Source: Catajapyx aquilonaris (lineage: Eukaryota). Taken from it: 50,358 nt of DNA. The DNA lies in assembly GCA_000934665.2 (NCBI GenBank), contig JYFJ02002815.1:1-50358 (forward strand), given 5' to 3'. The notes beneath the pieces were generated by a model. The model ran no database searches and had not been told where the DNA came from. It saw nothing but the letters and a program-made list of their open reading frames with translations. The position numbers and the translations under genes are program-made. This document shows positions 20,235 to 50,358 of the stretch, piece by piece (within the stretch, counting starts at the first letter, position 1; each line of letters opens with the position of its first letter).

Positions 20235-20272
20235 GTAAGCTAGTAGCAGGAAACAATGGCGTGATCAAATTA

Positions 20273-20463
20273 AGGCCGGTATCCACGTACGAGAATCTCG
20301 CATACGAGGGCTTACGAGGAGCCAACTGCGCATGCCCAGATACGAGGAAAGAGAGAAAAAGTAGAAAATTTTATACTTTTTCCCATTTTCTCGTATCTGG
20401 GCATGCGCAGTTGGCTCCTCGCAAGCCCTCGTATGCGAGATTCTCGTACGTGGATACCGGCCT
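20273..20463. mobile_element. Palindromic PIF/Harbinger (Tourist)-like MITE
   Basis: Arms of about 85 bp starting AGGCCGGTATCCACGTACGAGAATCTCGCATACGAG, with a TTA TSD on both sides. A second copy is at 28325-28504. Confidence 0.8.
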
Positions 20464-20868
20464 TTACTCAAGGTCCTGTCACACCATATAGCCTCAGTTA
20501 ATCCTTTTTGTTCTCCCTGCGTGAGGCTTGTCACATTGCACACTACTTATTTAATTCAAAATTATTCAAACTGTTGAGTTAGCACTGTACTCCCAGTTAT
20601 GTGGGTGTGGATTATTATTATCCATGCATCACAAAAAAAGAAAAAAAAAATTACAAGAGAATGTTATTAATACACTGTACTGCCGATTATCCAGGTTTGG
20701 ATTATCCATGTTTCGGATGATCCGTGCATGGCTAAAACAAAGAAAAATCCTTTAAAATGTCAATTTTTCTCCCAAATGAAGAAATACTGTATAACACTTT
20801 TTCTAGAAGACAAACTAAAAATCTCTAGTAAGTTTTACTAGTTTGATTTAAAAGCCTTATTTAAAGTA

Positions 20869-26400: not shown

Positions 26401-29400
26401 TTCATGTTATCTAATGAACGTTTGTAATTTGTGATGAAAATGGATTCTATTCATCTGTTCAAGTCTGACAAGAAGGTTCTTTTCACTTGCAAGAAAAATC
26501 GAATTACCGGACCAAAAAAACAAACAAAAAAAACAAAGCGTAAAGAGACACTAGAGCCGTGGTTTCCAACCTGGGGGTCGCTAGCTTTGGTTCAACATAT
26601 TTTTTTTGCGATAAATGTGCAATAATGAATAATTAGATAATCAAAAATGGGTGAATACTGTGTGCGAGTTTCAGTTTTGAGCTATAATTAAACTACAGAA
26701 ATTTGGAAACTTTCGCCCTCATGCCTTCTCTATCATTCTGCAGAGACACCACTACCGAGCTCTCTATGAAACCAATCAAGGTGCACTTATATTTGAAGGA
26801 AAGCAGCTATGCAGGGGAAGCAGATGCAATGATTGAAAATGACTGTTAGCTGGCATATTTCGCAGATATGTTTGAGGAGCTGAATGTGTTCCAACACGTC
26901 TCTGCAAGGGGTCAAATCAAGCAACATTTTTTAATCACATAAAAAATAAGTGCATTTTAATTAAAACTCGAACTCTGGCTGGCAGAAAAAAGTGGAGCAA
27001 CGCTGAGTAACCCGAGTAACCAGTATTGTTGGAGGGGAAAATCGATTGTTACTTTCACCTCCAACAATATTGGTTACCTCACTCGGCGATGACTTTGCTC
27101 GTCAAATCGCTCACATGTAAACGGGGCTTTACCTTTGATCACAGAACTTGACCTAAGTGGTGGACCATCTTTTGCATTGTACAATGTTGTTCCACAATTT
27201 CCTCACATCCACTGGCTCCAATTAGGACTTATAATAATTCATATGAGAGGCTTACTGCCAATTTATTGTTGTTCACATTAAGCTTGACTTAGGTGTCACA
27301 AAATAAGAAGATATATAATCATGCAATACAAATAATAGGAATTCGTTTTCATTTGTATGGAATGATAATTATGTTGGTACTTCAAGGAATGATTCAGTGA
27401 AAGACTGGGCTGTTGACCTGTGTTACAGTGGTTGGCTCTAAATTGCCTGTTGGTTGACCTTCATGTATAATAGGTTAGGTTAAGTTAGACACACATCACG
27501 TGGTAGTATTTTGCACTGGTTGCTCATTAATTGCTCATTATATTCTGTCAATTTCTCCTCTTCTCATTGCAGATATTGGACCCCTTCATCCGCCTGTACC
27601 AGCTTCTCTACTGTGACCATTGCAATGGTGCATTTGCCACAAAGAGGAACCTGGTGAGGCACATGCTGAAGAAACACATCAATCCTGAGCCTCAGGTAAT
27701 ACAATAAATCTATGTACAGAATTGATATTGTAGGTAGGGACTAGGGTTTCCTACATAGAGAGGTTTGCATTAATAAGATAGTAATATACAGTATATTTTT
27801 CACAAGAAATCATTGATATATTATTTTGCCATATCAAAATGTTGATGGTATCACTAATTTTTGGGGATCCACATTCTTGGACATGTGACCAGTAGAATGC
27901 CACGTACATTATTTTGGTTAGGGTTACACATGTGACGAAAACTCATTACGGTGCAAATTTGCATTTTCGTCACCTTCCTCTTTCTATTGATATACAGGGT
28001 GGTCGGAAAGTAACTCTATTAGAAACATGTAAGAACTTTGTCAAATATTGCTCAATTGTCATGAAGCAAGTTTTATTTTGTAACATGAAATGGGAGAATT
28101 TGTCTGCAAACTTAAAATTTCACATAGGAACGAGTGTTTTCCGTCAATTTCTGTAGGCGATTCGGTATGCATGCTACAGACTTATATGCACGTAATCCTG
28201 CAGTACTTTTCCCAGCACATCTCGAATGCTCTCTCAAGTTGATCTAAATTTTGCAGTTTGGTGCGGCACACGCGCTCCTTTGACCAGGCCAGGAAGTGGC
28301 GAGAGCAACTCTCATGCACGCTAAAGGCCGGTATCCACTGACGAGATTCTCGCATGCGAGGAGCCGCGAGGAGCCAACTGCGCATGCCCAGATACGAGGA
28401 AGTTGAAAATGTTCAACTTTTTCCCATTTCCTCGTATCTGGGCATGCGCAGTTGGCTCCTCGTGGCTCCTCGTATGCGAGAATCTCGTACGTGGATACCG
28501 GCCTTACGGCGTTGCACCATTTTGACTGCTTGCATGACTGATCCTTCCATCTAGTGGGCAGCCGTTTTAATTCTCCCATTTCAAGTTACTAAATAAAACT
28601 TGTTTCATGAAAATGGAGCAATATTTGACGAAGTTATTACATGTTTCTAATAGGGAGTTACTTTCCGACCACCCTGTACATGGTTATTGGGTTTTGACCA
28701 CTTCCAATAACTGAGAAAAAAATTCTTAAAAAAATGACTCATTTTCAGCCCTTTCCCAAATTTCGCGATTTTCCTCCTCCCCACAGTATTACGCAATATG
28801 GCTGAAACTTGATATTTTGGGTTATACTTTTTTCCTCGATGGTTGATCGAGCAACACTATGTCCAATTACTCCTAGATATTTTGAAGAATTTGGTATTTT
28901 GACTGCCCCAAGGTCAAAAACGAAGTTCAGACAGAATGAAGGAATGACCTAAGGAACATAGAAATAGCAAGGAATTCCCATGGTCAAAAAAGGTGTTACA
29001 GAGTAGTTTTGCCCATGTAAGCATACATCGAATATTCTAATAAGTAGATGGCAAAACTTGACGATAAAGAGACACATGTTCATCAATACTGCATGTACTG
29101 TACCAAATTTCATGAGAATTGAAGAAGGGAAAAGGTGGGCCACTGAATATGGATTACCTGAATAAATAACATTGTGTAGCAAGCATATAGAGTTCAACAC
29201 TCCTTTCCAATGCATTTATGAGATGTCATATATTTCAGGGAAAAGGTGCTGAAGAGAAAATGAAGAATGGAGTACAGCAAGACACGAAGAAAAGACGACT
29301 CTTCAGGGGGATTTGCAAGAAGACATGTAGTTCCGAGAGTAATTTGAAGAGTCACATAGGAATCCATTCTGGCGAGAACCGGTTGACCTGCCAAGTGTGC

Positions 29401-30309
29401 AGCAAAAAGTTTTGTCATGCTTCTGCTGTGGGACGCCACATGCTAATCCACAGAGGGGAGAAGCCATTTAGCTGTGATGTTTGCAAAAGAAAGTTTACTG
29501 AGAAACGCACTCTAAAAGATCACAAGATGATTCATGAAGGAGTGAAGCCATACACTTGCCTAATTTGCAACAAAAAGTTTAGTCAAGCTTCTGCTGTGGG
29601 ACGCCACATGCTAATCCACAGAGGGGAGAAGCCATTTAGCTGTGATGTTTGCAAAAGAAAGTTTACTCAGAAAGGCACTCTAAAACATCACCAGATGATT
29701 CATGAAGGAGTGAAGCCATACAGTTGCCTAATCTGCAAAAAAAAGTTTCGAGGGTCTGGAGGTTTTAATAGCCATATGAGGGTTCACACAGGGGAGAAGC
29801 CATACAGTTGCCTAATTTGTGAGAGAAAATTTACTGAGTCAGGACAATTGAACAAACATATGAAGGTTCACACTGGAGAAAAGCCCTTCTGTTGCCAATT
29901 TTGCAAGAAAAAATTTGCTGAGGCAGGAGGTTTGAATAGGCATATGCGGATTCACACAGGAGAAAAACCATTCAGTTGCCAAATTTGCAGCAAAAAGTTT
30001 GGTCAGTCAACATTATTGAATATTCATATGAGGGTTCACACAGGGGAAAAGCCATTCAGGTGCATAATTTGCAAGAGGATGTTTAGGACCACACAATGTC
30101 TGTTGGTACACATGAGAAGTCACACAGGCGAGACGCTACATGGTTGCCAAGTTTGTAAGAAAAGATTTATTCGTTTGGGACACTTACGAAGGCATATGAG
30201 AATTCACACTGGCGAGAAACCCTACTTTTGCGAGATTTGCATGGAAAGGTTCAGACACTCAGGGAGTTTGAAAAGGCATCATATTAGAAAACACAAAGGA
30301 GAAAAGTGA
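23469..30309 (+). CDS. C2H2 zinc-finger protein, about 455 aa: two isolated N-terminal fingers plus a tandem array of 11 intact and 1 degenerate fingers
   Basis: Phase-0 exons 23469-23642 (FPCPCCPGKTFKRRLDLLAHNTTH, VKVEVKEKP), 27573-27695 (YCDHCNGAFATKRNLVRHMLKKH) and 29239-30309 (CxxC..F..L..HxxxH fingers with TGEKP-type linkers). The final exon is certain; the start codon and upstream exon linkage are inferred. Confidence 0.85.
24112..25272. mobile_element. About 1.15 kb fold-back element (long inverted arms) in the zinc-finger gene intron
   Basis: 24366-24530 is the reverse complement of 24817-24975, and 24112-24270 of 25104-25270. The motif ggcacaatctcacccc recurs. Confidence 0.7.
25790..26470 (+). 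pseudogene. Decayed hAT transposase fragment (SPIN/GTF2IRD2-like)
   Basis: Frame-shifted remnants: KTINFIRAQGL, YDRVRCFQTKLHLWEAQM, LITEFEKRFRDF..DIQLF, QMELI, LAMCGSMRLCEQ..MMNVNRT..LSNERL (hAT C-terminal dimerisation-like). A further hAT-like fragment LAYFADMFEELN lies at about 26850. Confidence 0.7.
27995..28676 (-). mobile_element. Tc1/mariner deletion derivative with a nested Harbinger-like MITE
   Basis: TA|CAGGGTGGTCGGAAAGTAACT.. TIRs of about 105 bp ..AGTTACTTTCCGACCACCCTG|TA. Transposase C-terminal remnant FLAWSKERVCRTKLQNLDQLERAFEMCW. Confidence 0.8.
28325..28504. mobile_element. Second copy of the palindromic Harbinger-like MITE
   Basis: Same AGGCCGGTATCCAC termini and GAGGAGCCAACTGCGCATGCCCAGATACGAG arms as 20273-20463. 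Confidence 0.8.
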
Positions 30310-31203
30310 TTTTTGATTGTTTAAACCCCCCCCACCCATTCAAACAGCCACTGCATTTGTCAAGTTACCTACACACATCATGTTAGCGACTCTCAATTTC
30401 TGTGAAGCACTTCCTGAGACATCACTGAGGGAGGATTAAAAGTCAGACAGTAAAAAGATAAGTAGAGATGCAAAGGACCCGAAACAGAAGGGTTAAAGAT
30501 GGGAACTAAATATGCTGGCAGTCCGATTTGTTGTATGTGAACTGTGATCCAGTGTATACGGTGGCCACGAATAAAGGAGCACATGTTTGATGAGCAGTAA
30601 AATGATGAAGAAAATTTATACGAGCAAGTGAAACTACAAGTGAGTCAGGAAAACAATGCTCATCGATTTTCCATTTTGGGTCAACTTGGACTGCATTCAA
30701 GTCAATGCATTAGCAAGCTTTAAGTCTTTTTTGCCCTTCTCGCATGCGTTTCTGCTGATCATAACAGGAATGATGAGTTGTTATGTTGTGATGGGTGTAC
30801 TTTTGTGGGCTAAACTAGGATATAAAGTGGCTAGTGGGTGGATACTGGGTTTAACATGTGTCACTTATTGTTGCGAAAATTTTGCATACAATGAATAGCT
30901 TTTTTTTTTTTTTTAACTTTGGGATTACCTGTGTTTCAAACCTGGTGCAATCGACCCTTCATATACCCAGGCGATGAACATACCAGTAATGGTAAAAATG
31001 TTTTTATTAATTTACCCATTCCCATTCTCTTGCTTAATTTTATTACCTCATGCCTACCTTTCTCTCAGGGAAATTGTGACTGCAGCTTGGGCCGTAGCTA
31101 GTGGCTTGGGAGGCCCTGTTTACCTCCCCCCTCCACTTATAGTTCTGCACCACTTTCATTTAGTAAGCCTTTTAAAAATAGCTATTTGGTGTTTTTTTTC
31201 TTG

Positions 31204-31767
31204 TTAACCCCTTGAGCCCCGGTTACACCCGCCATCGCCTAGTTTTCCGCTTACGAGTACTCTGAAGATACAGCTATACTTACCCGATCAGGAAAAACCC
31301 TATGAATGTGTCTGGAACAATTTTCCTCCTCTGCAAGTCCCTGAAATTAATTTCCAAAAATATCGCTGGAAAACTCGAAAGTCCAGTGCTTCCAGCCAAC
31401 TACTTGGCTGATTTAATTATGAAACACGTTAAAATACATGGAATAACAATATTGAGAATAGTGCTAGATGAATTTGCTGAAATCGTTGTACTTTGTGAGA
31501 AGTAAATTATTTCTTATATGCGGCTTTCCTGTTACTCCGGAAATCTCCCAGTCGTGTATTTCTCGCGAAGTACGACGATTTCAGCAACTTCGTCTGGCAA
31601 GGTTCTCAAGGTTAATATTCTATATATTTTAATGTATTTCATAATTAAATCAGCCTAACAGTGGGATGACAATTCTTGAATTTTGAGTGTTTCTACAGCA
31701 ATCTTTTTGGAATTTTTCTATTTTAGGGACTTGTAGAGGAGCAAAAATTGTTCCAAACACATTCATA
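31204..31767. mobile_element. piggyBac-like MITE fragment with a long internal inverted repeat
   Basis: Left end TTAA|CCC. 31301-31505 is the reverse complement of 31556-31767. It is absent from duplicate units 2 and 3, and no right terminus was found. Confidence 0.5.
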
Positions 31768-32389
31768 GCATAGTCAATCAACATGGTTTATTATGTACTG
31801 TTAAGTTACTTGTTAATCAGCAGAGCTGGTTAATTAATCTGTTAGGTTATGTGTGCATGTGTTTGGTAGCCTGAATATTTTTGAAACATTTGTAATGAAT
31901 TGAACATATTATAAAACATGACATTTTGTTTATTCATGTTTCCCTTTATACTTGTGCCTATAATGTATACGGAGACAATAAAATACATTTAATTGGGTTC
32001 TTCTCTTTCCAACAATGATTTTCAGGAAGCAGAGTGGCACTGATGAGAACATTATTTTACTATGGCCCGGTCTCACCATATAAATCCTCGATCTTAACAA
32101 TAAGATTGGTGCCACAGCCACCATTGTTGACAACAATCAAAGGGTAAGCAGGATTGTTCGATAAGGAACTCGGATTTATAATGTGTAACCTGCTGGTATG
32201 ATGAAACCCGGCCTAAGACAAGGATGGCAGTAATGGATCGTTTAGGTCAGAGTGCGCAGTGCATCGCATGGAAAATAAACGACATTTAAATTTGCAGAGG
32301 GTTTTTCTCCCCGAGTTACTGAACGTTCCATTTCTGTTGGCGCCACCTTCATTGCCCTGAATGCGGTTGGCCACCCTGTGGCCTGTAGT

Positions 32390-32515
32390 CCAACCAAGAT
32401 GGCGGATGAGTTGCCGTGAGAAGAAGAGCCGCGGGAGAGTCTCTCGGTGGTTGTTGTTCCGCTAAAACCAGTCTCAGCACCGACTCGTGGGGAAGGAGAC
32501 TAGGAGTGGAGCTTG
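32390..32515 (+). promoter_or_regulatory. Probable TSS region and non-coding exon 1 of F-box copy 1 (homologues at about 40966-41091 and 48228-48350)
   Basis: YY1-like CAAGATGGCGG, a CpG-richer segment, and the donor CTTG|gtgagg conserved in all three copies. Confidence 0.5.
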
Positions 32516-32872
32516 GTGAGGATTGGAAGGTGTGTTAAGGACCGTGGGAGGAAAGGTGAGGATGAGGCGCACTTGCTCTTGAAACAGGGATTCATTGCGA
32601 GGCCTAGGCTCACCTGGTTCATTCCATACCCTTGGAAAAAGAACATGTCATTTAGGGGAGTTTAGGGTAGTATTGAGGGAGTGGAGGCACAGGGCTAGGC
32701 ATTGGGGTGCCCCGCAGCTGGCCCCCGGGCCACAGCACACATTCACAGACACCAGGAGAACTCACAAGTCGCAGAAGATCTGACAAACCCTGCCCAATAA
32801 GCAACAACACAAGTCAGGCTCGAAGATGTACCCAACTACTAAGACCGTCGTCATTGTTTTGATGACGTAGAG

Positions 32873-33397
32873 CAGGTGTTCTTAACCTCTTCGTGCCTCC
32901 GCACCCCTTTGAAGACAGTTGGTCGCACCCCCTATACCAGGGGTGATTGATTAAGTACATTGTTAGACTAATGTAAGTCGGGAAGGCGCTGTGGCCCAGA
33001 TGGTAACGTCTCGGCTTGCTGAGCGGAAGGTCCCGGGTTCGATCCCCGCCCGGGATTTCCCTTCCGCCTGCGTCAGTGGGTCTCTGGACCGCGCCTAGGA
33101 AGGCGTCTTGGCAACCTAGCCTTCTGGGGGACTGCACATGACCCATATTCCGACATTGCACTTGCACCTGTGTCCCCTCTCCAAAAATCCCTATCCTTAC
33201 CCCACTTGCTTCCCTGCACGGAGAACGAAGAAAAAGTATGAAATACTAGAAAACAAACAGATTGTGGTAGGCCACCCCCCCTATAACAACTTACAGTTGT
33301 ATCACAGGGTAAAATAAATAAAATAAATAAATAAATAAATCGACTAATGTAAGTCCAGAGGTGCACCTGGCTCGCACACCCAGGTTTAGAACTGCTG
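32873..33397. mobile_element. hAT-type MITE hosting the SINE; homologues at about 41956-42110 and 49642-49796
   Basis: Termini CAGG(T/G)GTTCTTAACC...GGTT(T/A)AGAAC(T/C)GCTG and a near-perfect 8-bp TSD acgtagag/atgtagag. Confidence 0.65.
32980..33341 (+). mobile_element. tRNA-derived SINE (tRNA-Ala-like head) with (TAAA)n tail and 14-bp TSD
   Basis: A box TGGCCCAGATGG, B box GGTTCGATCCC, tail aaataaataaataaat. TSD GACTAATGTAAGTC at 32966-32979 and 33342-33355. The site is empty in copies 2 (about 42056) and 3 (about 49741). Confidence 0.88.
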
Positions 33398-33695
33398 ATG
33401 TAGAGCTAAAAGGTCCATTATTACTGAGGGTTCCTGTATTTGTCCTGTTGATGTGTGACCTCTATTGTGACCCGCCCTGTAGTGCTGGAGTGATTGCGAG
33501 GACTGGCAGTGGATGTTTCCAGTGGTTTCAACCAGTTGACAGCAGCACTTTCCTATTGGCCATTATTTTTCTGCAGCATAATTTTTTACTGGCCCTCTTC
33601 TTTCATATCCTCACCTTTTGTCATCAGTCTTTGCTCAGATCCGGATATGCATTGTGTTCCAGAGGCTCCTTCTACAAGCCAGCAATAGTAAGAGC

Positions 33696-36600
33696 ATGGT
33701 GGGCATACGGAGGTCAGCGCGGTTGAGGTCCAGGGAGGACAACAAGGAAGCGAAGAGGCAGAGGCTGGAAGATGGTGGGGATGATCAAGGTGGGCATGGA
33801 GGGGCACAGGCTGCACCAGAACAGCAGGAGGTAAACAATAATTATGAAAATGGAAGGCTGCAGGAATTTTGAAACACTCCCTTCATAATAATCAGTGCCA
33901 GAAGACATAGTGAGACGCTGCTTTTTTTTTTCTTTCTTCCTTTCTTTCTTTTTTTTTTTGCAGGGCTACAAGAAGCTTCCTACAGAAATATGGCTTCACA
34001 TATTTTCCTTCTTGCCTGCACAATTTCTGCTACTGGGAGCTGCCCTCGTCTGCAAAGAATGGCACGAAATGGCCGTGGTGCAGAAGAAGCACTTGCAGGA
34101 AGTCAAGTTTGTTCTCGGGAGTGCTTCTTCTACTGAGACTGCAGCCAGAGCATGCAGGTTGATCCGCAGCATGCCTAACCTTAAGATAGTCAGACTTCAT
34201 TGCCGGTATGGCTCGGTGGATGTGATTTTGAGGACAGTTGCCAAGAAGCTTCCAGGCCTTGAAGTGCTTGATTTGCATTATGTCACGATCCGTAACATAC
34301 GGTCCCTGGAGTTGGTGGCTCAGAGGTGAGTTTGTAATGTCATGAATTTTCCAATTTGGTGACTGGTATTATTCACTTTGATTAAAAGTTTATGCATGAC
34401 TTTCATTACCTTTGCAAGGGAATCACACTATGACAATGCCTTTTAAGAACTAATATGTGTTTTTAGCCAATGGTTGGAGCAATAATAAAGGGAACAATAA
34501 TTTTTGGGATCACAGGTGTACTTTACTGTGTACATATACCTGATTTTTTTTTAGAACTTTAAGGCAGAGTCATTCCATGTGAAATGGGCCAGGGGGGTTG
34601 CTCGACCATCTAGTTAATTTTTTTTTGCTTTAGGCATGGGGGAGGCTGTGCCCTGGAGAAAATGAGACCATTGGGCCAGGTGGTATAATTATTATGTCAG
34701 TTAGTAAGCCATATGGCCTGGGTCTGAATTAATACTTCCTATTGTCTTAGGGCTGCAAAATGAACGCCCGCCTGGAAAGTTGCAGCCGCCAAAGTGTTTA
34801 CGTTACCTTGGTTACCTGCGGTTTGCGGGAGGGAGCGAAAACGAACACCCTTGCAGGTTGCAAGTCGGCCTGCAGATTGCAGACTTGCAGCCACAAGTTG
34901 CAGGCAGGTTGAGGGGTCCCGCAAGTGACTTGCAGTCGGTTTTGTAGTGGGGAAATCTTCACTTGGACACTATACTGATCACTTTTGGTCCGAGTACATT
35001 TTCGGCCCCACGCAGTTTCTTCGTCGTGGGGTACCTTTATTACAACGGTATACCAAATTTGGTGATAAGAAAAGTGACCCACGAACTTGCAACACCCTGT
35101 ATATAGCTAATGTAATGTAATAGTATGGTTGATATAACGAATATAGCTAGTATGATTGCTATATTGGTTATAGCCAGTATGATGGATACACACGGTGTTC
35201 GAAATTCGTGGCTCGTTTTTATATTAGTTATTATTTGTAGCTTGTTGTGCCCCTAACCAGATGGCCCATTCTATAGCAACTCGACTCCCTGGGAGTAAAA
35301 TGGAGCACAACAAGCCACAAAAATAACTACTATTGGGTGATATCAGTTATAAAAACCTACCCACGAATTTCGAACACCCTGTATAACCAATAAACCTGTA
35401 TGACAATATAACTGAGTTATATTCGTTATTATGGTAGTTGTATGTTACGCACATTGGTTATAACTGGTATGATGTAACCAATGTAACCAGTATGTCTGAT
35501 ATAACCATTATAACAACAGTAGTTTGACAGTTTTATTAGTTATAACTAAATGACTAACATAGCCAATGTAACTATGGTAGTATGATAGTAATACATTGGT
35601 TATAACTATAGTATGTGTGATGTAACCAATATGACTACTATGGAATAACTGATATCACAATGCAGTTTCTCACCAAATATCAGGCAAAAAAATCTGGAGC
35701 TTGTTCCTATCAGTTATTATAGCTACCGCTAAATATACTGTCTGCCAAAATAGCCGCGTTAAAACTCTCAACCCGGGTCTGAATAATCCTATATTGTTAT
35801 AACTTGGTGGGACCAAATTGTATCAAAATATTGTGCTTTATCTTTGACTGGACTACTGACAATGGATTACGATGAAAAATTGTGACCATGTACATTATTG
35901 GGCTGTCATTGGATGGCGGGCGGCTCTGGACCATAATATATTCTGTGATATATGAAAGATACAGTATATGGGATGATGATGATGATGATGATGGTAGTGG
36001 TGGTGGTGGTGTTACACTGAACACCTATCCCCATAATGCTTACATTAAGTCAAGGTGGGGTGGAGGGCCCATATTCAAAGCTGAAAGATCCGCATATATG
36101 AAGAATGCTACAGAGATAATTTTGTGCTGCAGGTTCAGATAGCCACATTTAGAGCTTCTCTCTCACACTCCAGCATGTCCCCCGAGACGATGGACCTGCA
36201 CCGAACAGTTAGTTATGGTTTAAAGTCTACTGCAAAAAATAATGATAATTATCCGAGCACAATAAACCGCAATTGTAGGCATAAAACTACCCGCGTCCAT
36301 GCAGCCCGCCGTAAGCGGAAGGCAGGGGAGGTGAACATCTGTCGACAGCAGTGGCGGCATTCGATTTTGTTGGGGGGCTGAGCTTTTCCATTGGAAGGAT
36401 ACCCGATCGGCATACTTGGTTAGTCCAGGTACTATAACAATGGGTATAACAATGGGTATAACAAACGTGGCTTCATGATATGGCTTCCTTCCTGGCGGTT
36501 TCCGTATTTCCAAACCTGCCTACTTGCAGTCCGACCGCAACATTTGCAACCGCACGAAAACGGTGTTCTTTTTAGCTCGCCACCGTAACTATGGAGACCG

Positions 36601-38176
36601 AATGCAGGTAACTTGTTTACTGCAAGTACTTGCAGGCGGGCGTTCATTTTGCAGCCCTAAAGTGTATAGCCTACTTAACAATCGGTAACAATGCGAGCCC
36701 TTGGCGACCACGTAAACAAACTCGCGTATGCATGGACAACACATGGGGATTCGACATGTCTACGCTTCTGCGGCCGTGCGGCCGCAAACATGTAGCAATG
36801 GACACAAAAATTGCACCAAAAAATAGGACATGATCTGGCGCAGGGCACCTTCGTCATGGTTTTCCCCGATTAACGGTGTGTTTCGCTACAATAAATAAAA
36901 TTCCCTCAAAAATGCGCCTGACGTATTTTTGCTAATGCGCCCCCTTAAGACAAAAAAAAGTTTATTCCACGTGTGACTTGAAAATTCAGGAAATTCAGGA
37001 AATTTCATCACCGAGGCAGGGTGGTGTTGATTGACACAAACTACAGTAGTTTGTGAAAGTATGGAAATTGTGTGACCTGCCTGAGTTGGCCTTACATTTG
37101 CAACAGAAATGTAGGCAAAGTTTTTAGAACCAATCACACAAAATGGGTTCCTATCTTCTCCTTTTGCAAACCTCCTTCTTGGACAACTGCTAAAACCTAG
37201 AATTACATCCTGTACTCATATTCCAAACTTGCTCTTGTTTTATTATTTAAGATGAGTTTTATTACCATTTGTGGTTATTATTAATTTGTAATGGTTATTA
37301 TTGAGGTGTTAATTACTTAGGAAATGCAGCAAGGACAGGATTTCCCATCCACTTATTAAGACAATTAATTTTGTTCTTTGTTTTTACACCTACAGTTGCC
37401 AGTCCCTTAGAGAAGTTCGACTTGATGGGAATTCTAGCTACAATTGCAAGTATCCTCGCCACATCCTGGATACATTTTCCACCTGCCCCAAACTGAAGAA
37501 GTTTATAGTGGACACACACTACTTGTCCGGTGTGCTGCCCATAGACGAACTCATTGTGAGGAAATGGCCAAAGCTCACTGATGTTGAATTTGACTTTTTT
37601 CCGTCAACTCAAAATGCAATGACCTTGAAGATTGTGATTGACACAGTAGGAGGCCAGCTGCGTCGACTAAAAGTAGGTCGCATGGGTCATACAGACAATG
37701 CCGGGCATGACCCATACCTTCCCATTGGACAGTGCCACCAGTTGGAAGAGCTCATTATTTGTAAGGGATATGAGGTGAAGAAGACTACCCTTGTAGAGGT
37801 GATTCGCAACCTGCCACACCTGCGCAGACTGGAACTGGGCCGGGTGTATCCTGATGGCACTGGGAAGTTCCTGGGCCTTTTTTCCCTGGCACAAGCAGCC
37901 AGTCGCCTAGAGAGCCTTAAGTTGCACATGTGCAATGTTCTGACAGACCGCTGCATGTCGGCCATAGCCTCCAGGTGCTTGGAGCTGACTCATGTGACTT
38001 TCTCCAAGTGTTCAGGTTTTACCTACACTGGCTTTTACAAGGTGATCGCTCAATGCAAAAAATTGAAGACTGTTAGCGTCCAAGGGTGCAGTAATATCTT
38101 GATTGATCGAAATTGTCGTAAGAAGGTGAAAGAGCTCAATCCAAATGTTGTGTTAACATCTACAGAACAGTGTTAA
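33696..38176 (+). CDS. F-box/leucine-rich repeat protein (FBXL-like), copy 1, about 425 aa
   Basis: Exons 33696-33830, 33964-34325, 37396-38176 (1278 nt, phases consistent). F-box LPTEIWLHIFSFLP..AALVCKEWHEMA, followed by AMN1/FBXL-type LRRs (MPNLKIVRL, LPGLEVLDL, CPKLKKFIV, CHQLEELII, LPHLRRLEL, CLELTHVTFSKC, CKKLKTVSVQGC). Confidence 0.88.
34747..36660. mobile_element. About 1.9 kb non-autonomous TIR transposon (Harbinger- or hAT-like) in an intron of F-box copy 1
   Basis: Perfect 28-bp TIR TTAGGGCTGCAAAATGAACGCCCGCCTG, subterminal ttgcag repeats, and an ATAACC-rich interior. Absent at the equivalent site of copy 2 (about 44400). The TSD is not clean. Confidence 0.75.
35191..35381. mobile_element. 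Small Tc1/mariner MITE nested in the 1.9 kb element
   Basis: TIR CA(C/G)GGTGTTCGAAATTCGTGG, internally palindromic, with TA on the right flank. Confidence 0.65.
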
Positions 38177-38725
38177 GAGGCACCAGATATTTGAGAACAA
38201 TGCTGACCGGAATGAGGGCATCAGTGTAGAAAAATGATATGAGTATGTCTCATAATGCACTTCAGGCTGGGTGCACCATTGTGGGTTTGACAACCAAGAT
38301 GGTGCACCCAGCCCGAAGTGCATTATAAGAGATACTCTTATCATTTTTTCAACATATATTGGAGGATGGTGCAACACTTTCATATTATGAAAGTGCCAAC
38401 CTCCAATATATTTTCACACCCAAGGTGGCCATGCACAGGCAACAGAATGCAGTCAGGTACTTCCTTACCTGCCCAACAATGGTTTGTCATACTGTCGCTT
38501 GTACCAGCCTCTTTAAACTTCGCCTGTAATGCTTTTCTGAATGCGTACATTGGCTGATGTGTTGTTCATCTTGTGTTTGGGATGGCAACCCTGGGAAATC
38601 AAGACGTTCGCAGAATTTGAGATTGGAACACTGAGCTTGTGCAACATTAATGTGGTTTTGGGTTCCAAATCTCTCGAGTTTTTATTGAAACCAGGATGGT
38701 GCAATCTTATCTTAAAACTTTACCA

Positions 38726-39168
38726 CACTGTACACCCTATTATTCAGGCTAATGGCTGCACGGGTGTTGCTGGATAATCTGAAAACATGAATAATCGGGA
38801 AATTGCCCGAGACATAGCAAAAAAATAAGCTATTCACAGCTTTTTAATGTACTATACTCACTACTGTATAGAGATTGTGCACCTCAATTTAATCAAAATA
38901 ATAAAACTGAGATTTTTACTTTGTCTCATAGAAAAAAGTATGTTATATTTCATCATTGACAAGACATTGACAGTAGGTGGAATTTTCATCCCACTGCTAG
39001 TTACTGCTAACTTACCAAAGTACAAGTGTTGGCACTGGTTCTGACACAAAGTTAGCAGAATCTAGCAGTTGGACAAAAATTCCACACATTTTTGTCTGAC
39101 TTTAATTTTAAATTTTATTTTATGCCGATGCATGGATAATCCGCACCTGGATAATTGGGGGTACAGTG
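38726..39168. mobile_element. pogo-like MITE in the F-box 3' region (homologue at 46133-46540; related ends at about 20583 and 20673)
   Basis: Termini CACTGTAC(A)CCC..ATTAT(T/C)CAGG and CCTGGATAATTGGGGGTACAGTG|TA, with repeated GGATAAT motifs. Confidence 0.6.
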
Positions 39169-42100
39169 TATTCCAAACAATACAAGTTGTATGTAGAGCT
39201 ATATGGCTTCAATTAGGTAGAATAGTCTTTCGTCATTTTCTTTTTTCCCCTCCCATGTTAAAAAATATAAATGGGGAATGTCTCAGAATTGAGCTCACAT
39301 CGAGCTCGTAGTGTCTCTGATTCTTCTTCATTGAGTTGGAATCTTTATGCCTCCGTAATGGTAGTTATAATTATAAGGTGCCTGATGATAATATGGCCAA
39401 GCTAAGCTTTGGCGAATATTCCTGAAGCTGTATTGGTCAATGTTAAAAAACAAAGTATGGTATTGGGTACATTGGAACCTTGCCATACTCCCATTTACAT
39501 AAGTGAACCTTTTTGGATAGAAGTACTCCCAAAGGGGTGAGCCGCTGCAAAATTGGTTCCCAGCATCTATGACTTTCTTGAAGGAACAGTGCTGGTATAT
39601 GTAATTCGAATGCCTAATTATCATGGGCAGCCCATGCGGCAGCTGCAGCACTACACAAACTGCACATTTTGTTATGAGGAGCGGTAGGCCCCGGCATGGG
39701 GGGGAACTACTTTCAGGGGTATGGGTATCCGAAAAGCCTCGGACTTATGTGAATCGGAGAGTAGTGGAGGAAACCATAATCTGACGTAAAGCTGAAAGGG
39801 AACGATGGGAAAAATATTTTCGCCCAAAAGTCTACCATTTGGCCATATTAAAAACACGTGATGTTTATATGGCCAACAAACTTTCGCTCACCGAAAAAAA
39901 ATGTTTATAAATATTCAGCAAAGTAACTGGTTTTTTTGTTGTAACTCCCTAGGTGAATATTAAGTTATGTAATAGAAACTAAGGAAAAAATATAATTGCA
40001 TAGGTACTTTTCAAATAAATGCCACTGCAATAAGAATCAAAGGAAGTTCAGGAAAAGCTGAGAATGGAAGACTCAAAAATCACTGCAACTTTTTTGTTCC
40101 ATTTGTGTCCTTACATTCTTCTTCTGCATAAGCTTCTCCTTTGTTGGGTACAAAATGTATGTAACCTGGTGCAATTCATAATATTTATACCCATGAACAT
40201 GCCAGTACTATATTTTCCAAATTGAATATTGCGTTCTTTAATATTTACCCATTCCCTTACCCTTGCTTTGTGCCTTTGTCATTTCATTCCCTCAAGCCTA
40301 TACCCTTCTCTCAGGGAAGTTGTGACTACAGATAAGAATAAGAGAGAAATGAAGATGTGAGCCTGTTGTATAGTTCATTATGAACTGTTGATCAGCAGAA
40401 CTGGTTAATTAATATCTCAGGTTGTGTGTGCATGTGTTAGAGAGCCTGCATACTTTTGAAACATTTGTAATGAATTAACCATAAAACAAAACATGACATT
40501 TTGTTCATTCACTTTTCACCTAATTCTGTGCCTATAATGTATAAGGAGATAATAAAATACATTTAATCCGGTTTGTTGCTTTATTTACACGAATGGTTTT
40601 CAGGAGGCGGAGTGGCACTGCCAACACCATTTACTAACAGCAAGACCAGGTTTCACTGAGCAGGTTATATCATAAATCCTCGATTTTAACAAGATTGGTG
40701 CCACAGCAACCATTGTTGACACTTGACAACAATCAAAGGGTAAGGAGTGTTCATTCATAATGTGTAACCTGCTGGTATGAAACCCGGCCTAAGCCAAGGA
40801 TGGCAGTAATGGATCGTATAGGTCAAAGTGCGCCGTGCATCGCATGGAAAATAAACGACATTTAAATTTGCAGAATGTTTTACTGGGCGAGTTACTGAAC
40901 GTTCCATTTCTGTTGGCGCCACCTTGATTGCCCTGAATGCGGTTGGCCACCCTGTGGCCTGTAGTCCAACCAAGATGGCGGATGAGTTGCCGTGAGAAGA
41001 AGAGCCGCGGGAGAGTCTCTCGGTGGTTGTTGTTCCGCTAAAACCAGTCTCAGCACCGACTCGTGGGGAAGGAGACTAGGAGTGGAGCTTGGTGAGGATT
41101 GGAAGGTGTGTTAAGGACCGTGGGAGGAAAGGTGGGGATGAGGCGCACTTGCTCTTGAAACAGGGATTCATTGCGAGGCCTAGTCTCACCTGGTTCATTC
41201 CATACCCTTGGAAAAATAACATGTCATTTAGGGTAGTTAGTGCGCATCACAGTGGTGCAATAGTTTAAGCCTGACTAACCTACCGCAGTCTATGAGAGGC
41301 ACTGAGTTACCAGGCAGGAGATTACAACATGCATTGGGCCATGCAAGCATTAAGTTTTGTTACGCTACCGATTCGACGCCATGAGGCACACCGGATAAAA
41401 AAAGAGCACGGGCAGATACGTTGATCCTATACCAAACTCTGTGACAGGTCAGTGACATTGCACTGGTTCCCGCTAGCTCATGTGGCGTGGGTTTTACACA
41501 AACACAGGTACTGTAATACCCAAAGTGCTGACTGGTTTATTGCCAAGCATATAATTATTATGTTGAATTTTTATTCTTGTGAGAGGTTGTGTAGGTAGGG
41601 GACCTCAGTGCTTGGTTTAGCCTGGGGTCCTGTAATAGTGTTAAGACGGCCCTGAGTACCAAGTACTGGAGGAGGGTGACATCATGGAAAGGAATTTTCG
41701 TGTCATTTCATATATTTATAGTATATCCCCTATTTGCCTCTCCTGCAAGATTTTTCACATATTGAGAGGGACTGGTGGCACAGGGTAAGGCATTGGGGCT
41801 CCCCGCAGCTGGCCCCCGGACCACAGCTCGCATTCACGGACACCAGGCGAACTCACAAATCGCGGAAGATCTGACGAAACCTGCCCAACAACACAATCAG
41901 GCTCGAAGATGTACCCAACTGCCCAGATGGTGGCCATTGTTTTGATGACAAAGAGCAGGGTTTATTAACCTTTTCGGGCCTCCGCACCCCTGGGAAGACA
42001 GTTGGTCCATGTCGCACCTCCTATACCAGGGGTGATTGATTAAGTACATTGTTAGAGTAATATAAGTCAGGAGGTGCATCTCGCTGGCACACCCAGGTTA

Positions 42101-42418
42101 AGAACCGCTGATATATAGCTAAAGGATATATTATTACTCCAGGGGGTTCCTGTATTTGTAGTCCTGTGGATGTGTGACCTCTATTCTGACTCACCTTATA
42201 GTGCTGTAGTGATTGCGAGGACTGGCAGTGGATGTTGCCAGTGGTTTCAACCAGTTGATAGCAGCACTTTCCTACTGACAATAATTTTTCTGCAGCATAA
42301 TTTTTTACTTGCCCTCTTCTTTCATATCCTCACCTTTTGTCATCTGTCTTTGCTCAGATCCGGATTTGCATTGTGTTCTATCTAGAGGCTCCTTCAACAA
42401 GCCAGCAATTGTAGGAGC

Positions 42419-45400
42419 ATGGTGTCCACACGGAGGTCATCAAGGTTGAGGTCCAGGGAGGACAACAAGGAAGCGAAGAGGCAGAGGCTGGACGATGGTG
42501 GAGATGACCAAGGTCACCATGGAGGGGCACAGGCCGCACCAGAACAGCAGCAGGTAAACAATAATGATGAAAATGGAAGGCTGAAGGGAGTTGAAACACT
42601 CCCATTCGTAATCAGTGCCAGATGACATAGTGAGACACTCCTCCTTCCCTCTCGCTCACTCCCTCTCTCTCTCTCTCCCCCCCCTTTTTTTGTTTTTACA
42701 GGGCAACAAGAAACTTCCTACAGAAATATGGCTTCATGTGTTTTCCTTCTTGCCTGCTAAATCTCTGGTAACGGGAGCTGCCCTCGTCTGCAAAGAATGG
42801 CATGATATGGCCATGAAGCAAAAGAAGCACTTGCAGGAAGTCAAGTTTGTTCTCGGGAGTGCTTCTTCTACTGAGTCTGCAGCCAGAGCATGCAGGTTGA
42901 TCCGCAGCATGCCTAAACTTAAGATAGTCAGACTTCATCGCTGGTATTACTCGGTGGATGTGATTTTGAGGACAGTTGCCAAGAAGCTTCCAGACCTTGC
43001 AGTGCTTGATTTGCAGTTTGTCATGATCCGTAACATCCAGTCCCTGGAGTTGGTGGCTCAGAGGTGAGTTTGTAATGTCATGAATTTTCCTCTTTGGTGG
43101 CTGGGTATTATTCACTTTGATTAGAAGTTTCTGCATGGCTTTCATTACCTTTGCAAGGGAATCAAACTATGACAATGGCTTTTAAGAACTAAAATTTGTT
43201 TTTAGCCAATGGTTGGAGCAATAATAAAGGGAACAATAATTTTTGGGATCGCAAGTGTACTTCACCATGTACATATACCTGATTTTTTTAAGAATTATAA
43301 GGCAGAGTTATTCCATGTGAAATGCGCCAGGGTGGTTGCTGGATCATCTAGTTAATTTTTTATCTTTTCACCGCAGGTAGCCTTGATATTGACTTGCTCA
43401 AAACTACTTTTGTTAATTTTTTATCTGCCACCATGTTGGATATATACTGATTTTTCTTCACCGTGGCGAGCAAAAACGAGCATTTGCAAGGGTTCTGAAA
43501 AAAGGCTACTGGCTGGTGTCTATTCCAGATAGGATGTTCTGGTTTTCAGTCTTGGCCTTTCGTACGAATCCTAAAAATTGGCACGAAGGGCGTGCAAACT
43601 GGAATTTGTTTTACCACGGCTAGATCCCCTCCCAGTCAGAGTTCTTGGGGAAAAAAATCCATCCTATGGTTTCAAGACCTTTTGATTTTACAGGCATTTG
43701 AAAAGGGCAAAATTTATCATTTTGGCAGCTATATATGTAAGACCATTAAAGTCGCAGTTACCAGAGTTTTATCCTCTATGTATGCACATATTCCGAAAGG
43801 CCAAGACCTCTTCTTTCAGGAAGTGAAAACCAGAACATCCTATCTGGAATAGACACCAAATACAAGGACGGCTTAATAAGTAACGCAAATCATTTAATTT
43901 AGGCAAAAGTTTAATAGATAGACAAAGCTTAAGATATACATTCCACCCTTTGGCTATTTTTCAATATATGAACCGTTTTTGTTGATGCGTTTCTCCCACT
44001 GTGGTCCATCGTTAAAGGTAATTATGCTCGGTTATTGCCAGAAGGTTCAGTTGGGTGTGGGTTGCTTTAGGCATGGGGGAGGCTGTGCTCTGGAGAAAAC
44101 GAGACCATTGGGCCAGGTGGTATAATTATTAAGGGGAAGTGGGGTAAGTGCACACACGGGGTAAGTGCATACACGGGGCTGCCATATTGGAATGAAAATG
44201 GCTGACGATACCAAAACGCGGGGGATGTTATGTGCAGCTACACAAAAGAGTGCCTGAAGCGTTTTGGTGTTGTCAGCCATTTTCATTCCAATGTGGCGGC
44301 ACCGTGTATGCACTTACCCCGTGTGTGCACTTAACCCACTTCACCTTATGTCAGTGAGTAAGCCATATGGCCTGGGTCTGAAATATTACTTCCTATTGCC
44401 TTACTTGGTTAAGTGTATAGTGTTAAGACAAAAGAAAGTTTATTCCATGTGCGACTTGAAAATTCTGGAAGTTCAGGAAATTTCATCACCGAGGCAGGAT
44501 GGTGGTGATTGACACAAACTACAGTAGTTTGTGAAAGTATGGAAATTGTGTGACCTGCCTGAGTTGGCCTTACATTTGCAACAGAAATGTAGGTAAAGTT
44601 TTTAGATCCAATCACACAAAATGGGTTCCAATCTTCTCCTTTTGCAAACCTTCTTTTTGGACAATTACTAAAACCTATAGAATTACATCCTGTACTCATA
44701 TTCCAAACTTGCTCTTGTTTTATTATTTAAGATGAGTTTATTACCATTTGTGGTTACTATTATTAATTTGTAATGATTATTATTCAGGTGTTTATTACTT
44801 AGGAAATGCAGCAAGGACAGGATTTCTCATCCACTTATAAGACAATTTGTTCTTTGTTTTTACACCTGCAGTTGCCGGTCCCTTAGAGAAGTTCGACTTG
44901 ATGGGAATTCTTGCGTCAGATCCAAGTATCCTCGTCACATCCTGGATACATTTTCCACCTGCCCCAAACTGAAGAAGTTTATAGTGAACGCATTCTACTC
45001 GTGGAGTGTGCTGCCCATAGACAAACTCATTGTGAGGAAATGGCCAAAGCTCACTGATGTTGAATTTGACATTTTTTCGTCAATTCAAAATGCAATATCC
45101 ATGAAGATTGTGATTGACACAATAGGAGGCCAGCTGCGTCGACTAAAAGTAGGTCACATGGACATGGGTCATATAGACAATGCCGGGCATGACCCATACC
45201 TTGCCATTGGACAGTGCCACCAGTTGGAAGAGCTCATTATGTGTAGGGCATATGAGGTGAAGAAGACTACCCTTGTAGAGGTGATTGGCAACCTGCCACA
45301 CCTGCGCAGACTGGAACTGGGCTGGGTGTATCATGATGACACTGGGAAGTTGCTGTCCTTTTTTTCCCTGGCACAAGCAGCCAGTCGCCTAGAGAGCCTT

Positions 45401-45658
45401 AAGTTGCACAGCCACAGTCGTCTGACAGAGCACTGCATGTCGGCCATAGCCTCCAGGTGCTTGGAGCTGACACATGTGACTTTCTCCATTTGTTCAGGTT
45501 TTACCTACACTGGCTTTTACAAAGTGATCACTCAATGCAAAAAATTGAAGACTGTCAGAGTCCAAGAGTGCTGTAACATCTTGATTGATCCACATTGCCA
45601 TAAGAAGGTGAAAGAGCTCAATCCAAATGTTGTGTTAACAACTACAGAACAGTGTTAA
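42419..45658 (+). CDS. F-box/leucine-rich repeat protein (FBXL-like), copy 2, about 427 aa
   Basis: Exons 42419-42553, 42702-43063, 44872-45658 (1284 nt). Same exon structure as copy 1 and an intact frame. Confidence 0.88.
43305..43870 (+). repeat. Dispersed repeat family, also at 22033-23200 (interrupted by the mariner) and truncated at 34567-34620
   Basis: Shared start g(g/a)gt(c/t)attccatgtgaaat..ggttgct(c/g)ga(c/t)catctagt, and shared internal block gtcagagt(c/t)cttgg..aaaaaa..ttcaag..ttttacaggc(c/a)tttgaaa. Confidence 0.55.
44132..44346. mobile_element. Palindromic MITE with TA TSD, specific to the F-box copy 2 intron
   Basis: Arms of about 88 bp, AGG(G/T)GAAGTGGG(G/T)TAAGTGCACACACGGGGTAAGTGCATACACGG. 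The empty site ttatta-tgtcag is present in copy 1 (about 34690). Confidence 0.8.
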
Positions 45659-47294: not shown

Positions 47295-47396
47295 ATATCC
47301 TAGTTTAGCCCCCAAAAGTACATCCATCACAATATGACAACAACAATGAGTTGTCATATTGTGATGGATGTACTTTCAAGGGGTAAACTAGGATAT
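47295..47396. repeat. About 100 bp hairpin element; only its right arm is present at 30772-30822
   Basis: atatcctagttta(g)cccc..aaagtacatccatcacaatatgacaac / gttgtcatattgtgatggatgtacttt..ggggtaaactaggatat. Confidence 0.65.
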
Positions 47397-50096
47397 AAAC
47401 TAGGTTTAACTTAACATGGGCTACTTATTGTCGGGAAAATTTTGCAAACAGTTAATAGTTTTTTTCTACTTTCCGATTAAAAATGTATGAAACCTGGTGC
47501 AATTCATAAAATTTATACCCATGAACATGCCAGTACTGTATTTTCCAAATTGAAAATTGCGTTCATTAATTTACAAGTTCCCATACCCTTGCTTCATCAT
47601 TTCATTCCCTCAAGCCTATACCCTTCTCTCAGGGAAGTTGTGACTACAGATAAGAATAAGAGAGAAATGAAGATGTGAGCCTCTTGTGTAGTTCATTATG
47701 AACTGTTAATCAGCAGAACTGGTTAATTAATCTCTAAGGTTGTGTGTGCATGTGATTGAGAGCCTGCATAATTTTGAAACATTTGTAATGAATTGAACAT
47801 AAAAGAAAAGATGACATTTGGTTCATTCACGTTTCACCTAATTATGTGCCTATAATGTATACGGAGATAATAAAATACATTTAATCCAGTTCGTCTCTTT
47901 ACAAGAATCTGAATGGTTTTCAGGAGGCGGAATGGAACTGACAACAGCAAGAACAGGTTTCACCGAGCAGGTTACATCAATGATCATAAATCCTCGAAAC
48001 TCTGATTCATAATGTGTAACCTGCTCAGAGTCTGAAACCCGGCCTAAGCCAAGGATGGCAGTAATGGATCGTTGAGGTCAAAGTGCGCAGTGCATCGCAT
48101 GGAAAATAAACGACGTTTAAATTCGCAGAGGGTTTTACACTTTTACTGACGATGAGTTACTGAGAATTCCATTTCTGTTGGCACCAACTAGGTGGCCCTG
48201 AATGCGGTTGGCTACCCTGTGGCCTGTCCAACCAAGATGGAGGATGAGTTGCCGTGACGAGAAGAGCGGGAGAGTCTCTCGGTGGTTGTTGTTCAGCTAA
48301 AACCAGTCTCAGCACCGACTCGTGGGGAAGGAGACTAGGAGTGGAGCTTGGTGAGGATTGGAAGGTGTGTTAAGGACCGTGAGAGGAAAGGTGGGGATGA
48401 GGCGCACCTGCTCTTGAAACCGGGATTGATTGCGAGGCCTAGTCTCACGTGGTTCATTCCACACCCTTGGAAATAGAATATGTCATTAATTTTAGGGTAG
48501 GTAGTGCATGACAGTGGTGCAGTAGTTTGCCCAATAGTTTAAGCCTGCCTAGTTTACCAGGCAGGAAATTAGGATTACAATAACATGCGTTGAGCGATGA
48601 ATGTTCACAAAGCACTTGTGGATGGACCTTTTAGCCATGTCAAGTGTTTACCTTTTGCGTGGCTGCCATGTTTGTGCTTGGGCGTAGTTAGCAATGGTGG
48701 TATGCTGTGCCAGGGTTAATATCTGTTCCAAATCGATGTGGAGCAGAGGGGAAAATTGTTGGCGGCTGTCAAGAGAGTGGCGGAGGGTTGGAAGAAGTTG
48801 GGAGCCCACCAAACGTCAACACAGAGTTGTGGAGCTCGCACTTTGCCTAATGTATACCAATTACCTGTGTTTATTTTCCTGGTGGGAGTAGCAGCGTGAC
48901 TAATTATATATTTAATATTCTGTGTACATTTGGGTGAAGCACATTATAGGAGCTGCAGACTTTTCAAGGTCAATTTCAGAGTTCACATGTGCGCAATATA
49001 ATAACAGCATGTAACTTGCAGCAACGTACCCAAACTCTCAACATGTAATGTAAGGTGAATAAGTAATAAGTTACTTCAAGAGTTACTTTCAACATATGTA
49101 CCATAGAAAAACAACATACGAGGGGCAGTCGGAAAGTTAGTTATGCCATGCTACCACCCGCTAGCTCATGGGGCGTGGGTTTTACACAAACACAGGTACT
49201 GTAATACCCAAAGTGCTGACTGGTTTATTGCCAAGCATATATTATGCTGGATTTTTATTCTTGTGAGAGGTTGTGTAGGTAGGGGACCTCAGTGCTCTGC
49301 TTAGCCTGGAGTCCTCTAATAGTGTTAAGATGGCCCTGAGTACAAAGTACTGGAGGAGGCCGACATCATGGAAAGGAATTTTCGTATCGTTTCATATAAT
49401 TATAATATATCTCCTATTTGCCTCTCCTGCAAGACTTTTCACGTACTGAGGGACCGGTGGCACAGGGAAAGGCATTGGGGCGCCCCGCAGCATCCTGGCC
49501 CCCGGACCACAGCTCACATTCACAGACACCAGGAGAACTCACAAGTCGCGGAAGATCTGACGAACCCTGCCTAACAACACAGTCAGGCTCGAAGATGTAC
49601 CCAACTGCCCAGATGGTGGCCATTGTTTTGATGACATAGACCAGGGTTTCTTAACCTTTTCGGGCCTCCACACCCCTGTGAAGACAGTTGGTCCATGTTG
49701 CACCCCCTATACCAGGGGTGATTGATTAAGTACATTGTTAGACTAATATAAGTCAGGAGGTGCACCTCGCTCGCACACCCAGCCTAAGAACCGCTGATAT
49801 ATAGCTAAACGCTATATTATTACTCCAGGGGGTTCCTGTATTTGTAGTCCTGTGGATGTGTGACCTCTATTCTGACTCACCCTGTAGTGCTGTAGTGATT
49901 ACGAGGACTGGCAGTGGATGTTTCCAGTGGTTTCAACCAGTTGATAGCAGCACTTTCCTATTTACAATAATTTTTCTGCAACATAATTTTTTACTGGCCC
50001 TCTTCATATCCTCCCCTTTTGTCACCAGTCCTTGCTCAGATCCTCATTTTCATTGTGTTCCGGAGGCTCCTTCAACAAGCCAGCAATTGTAGGAGC

Positions 50097-50231
50097 ATGG
50101 TGGGCACACGGAGGTCGTCAAGGTTGAGGTCCATGGAGGACAACAAGGAAGCGAAGAGTCAGAGGCTGGAAGATGGTGGGGATGACCAAGGTGACCCTGG
50201 AGGGGCACAGGCCGCACCAGAACAGCAGCAG
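50097..50231 (+). CDS. F-box/LRR protein copy 3, first coding exon (gene runs off the window)
   Basis: MVGTRRSSRLRSMEDNKEAKSQRLEDGG...PEQQQ|gtaaac. It is 135 nt like the first coding exon of copies 1 and 2, and the upstream promoter and intron sequence are homologous. Confidence 0.75.
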
Positions 50232-50358
50232 GTAAACAATAATAATGAAAATGGAAGGCTGAAGGGAGTTGAAACACTCCCATTCGTAATCAGTGACAGA
50301 TGACATAGTGAGACACTCCTCCTCCTCCTCCCCCCTCCCGCCCTCCCTCCCCCCCCCC

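Follow-up and report, generated by a model that had tools for sequence, protein, structure and literature searches.

Two neighbouring genes of Catajapyx aquilonaris encode proteins that share one scaffold and differ in short patches, which recur along the leucine-rich repeats (LRRs) of both proteins. The question raised by this locus is what has placed the differences there. The genes lie on contig JYFJ02002815.1 of assembly GCA_000934665.2, and the window analysed is the whole stretch of 50,358 nucleotides from position 1 to position 50,358 of its forward strand. They belong to a head-to-tail array of one three-exon gene, of which the window contains two complete copies (425 and 427 amino acids) and, at its end, exon 1 of a third. 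The reading that we favour, with a probability of about 0.6, is that the array is a lineage-specific family of FBXL-type receptors of SCF (Skp1-Cul1-F-box) ubiquitin ligases that is diversifying at the top rim of the LRR solenoid for different substrates. What the copies keep in common is the leucine scaffold together with the helix-to-strand loops and the N-terminal part with its F-box, and replacement in the strand-to-helix loops and at position 8 of the repeats outpaces synonymous, intronic, and flanking divergence.

An array of FBXL-type genes

The family is one of FBXL-type F-box/LRR genes. The F-box-like profile PF12937 matched copy 1 at E 4.9e-11 (42.7 bits) and copy 2 at E 4.4e-12 (46.0 bits; cut-off 24.3), and PF00646 matched the two copies at 29.2 and 31.8 bits (cut-off 20.5), which places both among F-box proteins by curated profile. 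The exon-3 model, Foldseek, and phmmer all identify the C-terminal part as an FBXL-type, cysteine-containing LRR solenoid, in which 11 repeats can be counted by register. The Pfam LRR profiles remained below their cut-offs in both copies. Searches and folding used single exons, and the model covers the exon-3 part, without the F-box-to-LRR junction. Built by AlphaFold2 from an alignment of 25 rows (the two window copies and 23 short sequences of the 150 HMMER matches listed), this model has ten strand/helix units, with a predicted local distance difference test score (pLDDT) of 85 and a predicted template modelling score (pTM) of 0.87. Foldseek returned 238 matches to it at E <=0.001, led by TIR1, D3, COI1, FBXL2, FBXL17 (TMq 0.75), and Skp2. 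When the exon-3 part was compared with the PDB by phmmer, 12 distinct sequences were matched at E <=0.01 and 12/12 were F-box or KDM2 LRR proteins; FBXL2 was the best (1.1e-13), and TIR1, FBXL17, COI1, KDM2B, and forms of Skp2 were also among them. Exon 2 had no phmmer match in the PDB. Language-model features likewise gave matches to F-box/LRR clusters.

In a HMMER scan of 1.84 billion representatives, 3,276 matches were obtained at E <=0.001, and the 150 listed are concentrated in the final three or four repeats. A word-index search found nothing in the matching length class and one weak plant match in the longer length class. Neither the HMMER matches listed nor the word-index search included a full-length relative with clear identity, and the genes could not be placed in a named animal FBXL orthologue group (FBXL2, FBXL17, etc.).

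A tandem array of F-box/LRR genes had been described in the first-pass annotation of this DNA, for the interval from exon 2 of copy 1 through the stop codon of copy 2 (33964..45658), and the description is borne out by self-BLAST of the window together with the Pfam F-box and FBXL-like LRR matches. The repeated unit measures ~7-9 kb, about 8 kb, by self-BLAST. Unit 1 lies on the + strand within approximate limits of 30773..39736; besides its three exons and their introns, it includes a promoter region and ~1.5 kb of downstream sequence common to units 2 and 3. Unit 2 reaches to ~47.3 kb, and unit 3 continues past the 3' end of the window. Unit 1 pairs with unit 2 at 31811-32662/40386-41238, 33342-34623/42055-43361, and 36945-39736/44423-47098, and a further pair joins 30773-31085 to 47346-47649; all unit-1 pairs are 70-88% identical. 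Unit 3 is 91.7% identical to unit 2 (49157-50356 vs 41469-42684). Because no repeat sequence occurs 5' of ~30.8 kb, copy 1 is the first member of the array on the upstream side. No further gene copies were found in the window by tblastn with both proteins, and among 15 other open frames within and around the units that were searched against Pfam, none inside the array had a match, so that only the F-box genes match there. The window has no Rfam match.

The three copies are all on the + strand. In copy 1, exon 1 (33696-33830) consists of an ATG plus 45 codons with a basic N-terminus, and its ratio of nonsynonymous to synonymous rates (dN/dS, or omega) against copy 2 is 0.41-0.45. Exon 2 (33964-34325) encodes the F-box (~33973-34074) and then LRR 1-2, as located by Pfam and the LRR register, and exon 3 (37396-38176) encodes LRR 3-11, the C-terminus, and the stop codon. 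Copy 2 has exon 1 at 42419-42553, defined by sequence and splice sites, exon 2 at 42702-43063, with the F-box (~42711-42815, Pfam) followed by LRR 1-2, and exon 3 at 44872-45658, with LRR 3-11. Exon 1 of copy 3 (50097-50231), found by tblastn and translation, is intact and has the GTAAAC donor of the other copies; the remainder of this gene lies beyond the window end. All four introns of copies 1 and 2 are GT-AG and the reading frames are open in both. Exon 1 ends in phase 0, and a Ser codon (AG/T) is split across exons 2 and 3.

The first exons (33696-33830, 42419-42553, and 50097-50231) encode two arginines, a spacer, and a K/R-rich stretch, a pattern that we take to be a putative bipartite nuclear-localisation signal. 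Two of the basic residues are lost in copy 3.

Whether the copies are working genes was judged from the state of their frames. Copies 1 and 2 differ by one coding indel (6 bases, in frame), and 13.2 would be expected (P 2.7e-5) from the 26 gap openings found in 2,521 aligned non-coding bases of the units. A frame free of stop codons after 106 random substitutions has P 0.016. The deficit of indels and stops indicates that the reading frames have been under selection and, with the open frames and canonical splice sites, agrees with the earlier description of both copies as intact. It also argues against the copies being unexpressed pseudogenes, or haplotypes laid out as a tandem by an assembly artefact. 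We regard either as very unlikely, since neither the two full copies nor the third exon 1 shows a broken frame or splice site, the units differ by 8-13% and by kilobase-scale insertions, and three units stand in series. What favours such an origin, and weighs against the receptor reading too, is that none of the 5 sequencing runs found to match is listed as an RNA run; moreover, the best-matching DNA run may be the window's own source sample. Of four runs compared with the window, one of undetermined kind (X5) yielded contigs with 83-92% identity to exon 1 (one ending at the donor, 33830) and to exon 3 (one starting at 37398). Three joints of X5 that met a skipped low-complexity stretch were discarded. 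No X5 contig covered the unique intron parts; uncovered parts are no evidence, and these contigs are not counted as expression.

Position of the differences on the LRR solenoid

The proteins of copies 1 and 2 are identical in 352 of 427 aligned columns. In the first-pass annotation, 11 pairs of short motifs had been quoted as changes clustered right after the LxxLxL strands, on the predicted concave, ligand-binding face. All 11 pairs were recovered in the alignment of the two copies. When the repeats are placed in register with position 1 as the first L of LxxLxL, the number of repeats (of 11) that differ at positions 1-16 is 0, 1, 0, 0, 1, 1, 2, 10, 4, 4, 5, 4, 3, 2, 2, and 2. Thus, position 8 differs in 10/11 repeats, and positions 7-13 differ at 32/77 sites vs 3/66 for positions 1-6. 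The 55 variable residues were permuted 20,000 times over 298 positions, and no permutation matched the position-8, best-phase, or 7-13 counts. Beyond position 8, most of the variation falls within the strand-to-helix loops and where the helices begin.

The secondary structure of the AlphaFold2 model gives a similar result for the exon-3 part. Strand-to-helix loops differ at 23/72 residues vs 24/187 elsewhere (odds ratio 3.2, p 0.001), with 7/55 residues differing in strands, 16/83 in helices, and 0/44 in helix-to-strand loops. The clustering of changes after the strands is therefore confirmed by both register and structure, and an even spread of substitutions, which would have spoken against a specialised surface, is not what was found: the differences are uneven and periodic. 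The variable loops coincide with the lower-confidence blocks of the model.

In the DNA of copy 1 the variable patches of exon 2 are at 34201-34212 and 34276-34287. The hypervariable patches of exon 3 are at 37436-37447, 37511-37531, 37595-37627, 37679-37693, 37757-37768, 37841-37879, 37928-37951, 38006-38008, and 38075-38119. In copy 2, exon 3 is two codons longer, through a 6-nt in-frame insertion that falls in the loop following the LRR 6 strand.

The proposal that these positions line the concave face holds in part. There is a periodic surface on the LRRs with dN/dS above 1, but only position 8 of the five exposed positions is hypervariable; the exposed positions 2, 3, 5, and 7 of LxxLxLxx differ in 1, 0, 1, and 2 of 11 repeats. 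The exposure of position 8 is itself predicted, from secondary structure and LRR register. On the model, the variable surface is better described as a rim or stripe, made up of the last concave position and the strand-to-helix loops (the 'top' face of TIR1 and COI1), than as the whole concave sheet.

In the favoured reading, the F-box would dock on Skp1-Cul1, and substrates would be contacted by the variable stripe that follows the solenoid's top rim on the model. Duplicates would diversify under selection for different substrates, which could be the animal's own nuclear proteins or foreign proteins. Gene conversion would keep the scaffold and the adjacent intron alike, and this would account for the flanks being more diverged than either the synonymous sites or the 3' part of intron 2.

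Substitution rates, possible drift, and probable gene conversion

By the Nei-Gojobori method, omega between copies 1 and 2 is 1.42 overall; exons 1, 2, and 3 taken separately give 0.41, 1.08, and 2.62. Four methods gave omega 2.5-3.5 for the LRR part (residue 96 to the end). Likelihood-ratio tests against omega = 1 under the GY94 codon model gave 3.63 for the LRR part (p 2.9e-4), 3.45 for exon 3 (p 0.0013), and 1.8 for the whole gene (p 0.026), and residues 1-95, which hold the N-terminus and the F-box, gave 0.58, which is not significant. Replacement is thus concentrated in the LRR part, in line with the first-pass annotation, and the F-box part is not accelerated. The contrast is sharpest in the exon-3 strand-to-helix loops, where dN is 0.207 vs a dS of 0.033 (omega 6.4, Fisher p 0.02). 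An omega at or below 1 at the sites in question, which would have spoken against their diversification, was found neither in these loops nor in the LRR part as a whole (3.6).

One alternative is relaxed constraint. Redundant young duplicates would drift under purifying selection on the hydrophobic scaffold only, and the loops would be free to change. The rate of drift cannot surpass the neutral rate, whereas loop dN exceeds the local dS, the divergence of the adjacent intron (0.044), and the pooled non-coding divergence, with replacement differences at 30/169 loop sites against 217/2,521 non-coding ones (odds ratio 2.3, p 2.7e-4). It also exceeds the downstream flank taken alone (p 0.003). At a neutral divergence of 0.041-0.10, changes would be expected in 1.0-2.4 of 11 position-8 codons; the observed 10 was reached in 0/200,000 simulations, which gave a maximum of 9. 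Even at a neutral divergence of 0.19 the position-8 count has P 4e-4.

Other results weigh against diversifying selection, and four of them (the LRR-wide dN, the loss of significance, the codon-position spread, and the CpG transitions) fit drift. The comparison of exon dN with intron and other non-coding divergence, proposed earlier as a check, divides: the loops exceed that divergence, but replacement over the whole LRR part (68/761) equals it (odds ratio 1.04, p 0.77). LRR synonymous differences (8/229) are below the non-coding level at p 0.005, and because LRR-wide dN equals non-coding divergence, the LRR omega above 1 rests partly on this low dS. Non-coding divergence is itself uneven, from 0.04 to 0.19 per 150-base window. 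Exon 3 outside the loops has omega 1.5, which is not significant. Significance is also lost without the clustered and multi-hit codons: removal of the latter reduces omega to 2.1 (p 0.07), and isolated single changes alone give 2.3 (p 0.23). The three codon positions of the LRR part are hit 27/30/18 times (p 0.21, no significant skew), and CpG transitions account for 14/75 LRR differences, all within replaced codons. Lastly, the selection tests compare one pair of full sequences, and single sites and recombination are beyond the reach of a pairwise test. Taken with the loop and position-8 excess, these results leave relaxed constraint, in our judgement, an unlikely account of the patches, and diversification at the rim is preferred.

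Gene conversion is a second process that bears on the rates. The 3' part of intron 2 differs at 19/444 positions (0.044), below other non-coding DNA, and the flanks differ at ~0.10. Over 36945-38176 vs 44423-45658, this intron part and the synonymous sites of exon 3 show a divergence of 0.03-0.05, about half that of the flanks. This stretch is likely to be a gene-conversion tract between copies 1 and 2, since dS is low and the intron beside exon 3 is little diverged.

Conversion may also have acted as a mosaic. Short tracts from older paralogues would bring in diverged patches, longer tracts would homogenise the remainder, and a few such events could inflate dN/dS without selection on these copies. 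The nucleotide differences are indeed clustered, with 27 gaps of <=3 nt among the 62 differences of exon 3 (simulation mean 13.5, maximum 23 in 5,000 runs), and 16 codons carry 2-3 changes. Low divergence in dS and in the 3' part of intron 2 relative to the flanks fits the homogenising part of this scheme. Possible donors exist as well: DNA runs contain several further contigs with 80-90% identity on the exons, and X1 has 2-6 contigs per listed exon-3 site. However, conversion takes no account of the LRR register, and to produce the periodicity it would need donors that were already diversified at the same positions, which shifts diversifying selection to the level of the family, and omega remains above 1, although not significantly so, for the isolated single changes noted above. 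Since any mutational process blind to the register cannot by itself produce the periodicity, selection is needed, whether it acted on the two copies themselves or on paralogues from which the patches came. Mosaic conversion without such selection is accordingly an improbable source of the pattern, and selection for different substrates at the rim is the reading that we retain.

The further diverged exon contigs in the DNA runs indicate that the family is larger than the window shows. Summed contig depth on the exons is several times the single-contig depth, a value that is not a copy number. In DNA runs X1-X3, two contigs come from further paralogues. One joins 34275 to 37384, so that exon 2 is followed by other letters up to a point just short of exon 3, and a different or shorter intron 2 is suggested. 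In the other (joint 38108/38187), the final 70 coding bases do not follow the window sequence, and this suggests a different C-terminus.

Relation to known receptors and neighbouring features

Like FBXL2, FBXL17, Skp2, TIR1, COI1, and D3/MAX2, the array proteins have an N-terminal F-box followed by a cysteine-containing LRR solenoid, and their last repeats read LxxLxLxxCxxxTD. Named animal FBXL genes are mostly single-copy, and in animals the FBXL class is regarded as a limited group of conserved regulators. Unlike the solved FBXL-type receptors, the array gene is multi-copy in tandem and fast-diverging, and among the 150 matches listed of 3,276 no close relative is present: identity is <=34%, over local stretches of repeats, which weighs against the favoured reading. 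A tandem, fast-diverging FBXL case was not found in the open-access literature, a search that cannot show absence, and the one Fbxl match concerned the single-copy Fbxl7.

The hormone and the degron of COI1 dock on three of its strand-to-helix loops, which lie at the top surface (PMC6058352), and the auxin pocket of TIR1 is on the LRR top surface (PMC5853230). The variable loops of the array correspond to the strand-to-helix loops of the COI1 ligand and degron site (PMC6058352).

Tandemly expanded F-box paralogues of nematodes are described as having a substrate domain under positive selection and an F-box under purifying selection (Thomas 2006, cited by PMC8120010). A purifying F-box with positive selection in the substrate domain is likewise described for mammals (PMC3984280), and tandemly expanded F-box families with the same contrast are described in plants. 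As in the expanded nematode and plant families, omega in the array is above 1 in the substrate domain and not above 1 in the F-box, here in one pairwise comparison. The substrate domain differs from that of the nematode families in being an FBXL-type LRR, not FTH or FBA, and the window holds 3 copies. A role against foreign proteins is a proposal made for the nematode and plant F-box families, and for the array it would be carried over by analogy.

In plant NLRs, the exposed LxxLxLxx positions form the concave sheet and their variation predicts binding sites (PMC8226289). The array resembles the highly variable NLR LRRs in that its variable sites recur with the LRR period and fall on exposed LxxLxLxx positions (PMC8226289). 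Unlike NLR variation, which fills the concave beta-sheet, that of the array leaves positions 2, 3, and 5 nearly fixed and falls on position 8 and the following loop. The output module is also different, an F-box instead of NB-ARC.

If the favoured reading is correct, the idea of adaptive ubiquitin-ligase adaptors would gain both a further domain type and a further animal lineage. The reading also offers a concrete predicted substrate-contact surface, which on the model would be formed by position 8 together with the loops that follow the strands. A bolder version, which we think rather unlikely and which leans on analogy, would see in the array one section of a wider set of SCF 'degradation receptors' in this invertebrate, probably nuclear, whose common scaffold is maintained by gene conversion. 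Their TIR1-like rim would stay hypervariable through an arms race with proteins of viruses or transposons, or else through selfish or incompatibility dynamics. Should the arms-race version hold, the FBXL genes would provide an intracellular recognition system with a logic comparable to that of plant NLR LRRs.

Within the array, intron 2 of copy 1 has a private part of ~2.3 kb (34624..36944) without counterpart in copy 2, to which it gave no alignment. It holds high-copy repeats, whose summed contig depth in DNA runs reaches ~15,000 at 35013-35483 and 36583-37053. Intron 2 of both copies contains an antisense open frame of ~105-109 amino acids, at 36886-37215 (-) and 44409-44726 (-), which has no Pfam match and overlaps in part with a high-copy repeat.

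Upstream of the array, a 372-amino-acid C2H2 zinc-finger open frame is present at 29191-30309 (+) (zf-H2C2_2, E 1.4e-76), with internal direct repeats at 29386-30241, and it ends ~0.5 kb before the first array unit. An apparent NF-kB/Rel-type gene lies ~16 kb upstream of the array, at 15905-17595 (-), where two open frames have matches to PF00554, the Rel homology DNA-binding domain (E 4e-6 and 2.5e-8). An EFCAB4/CRACR2/RASEF-type Rab GTPase is represented by exons at 6500-9660 (+), with a Pfam Ras match (E 2.9e-39) at 9370-9660. The best library identity of the Rab exon is 69%, and its matches extend across mites, cephalopods, cnidarians, annelids, and sharks, a spread that points to a metazoan with no near relative in the library searched. 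Two ~195-bp repeats with 84% identity (20271-20466 vs 28322-28506) stand in inverted orientation at a distance of 8 kb and probably represent copies of a short interspersed element.

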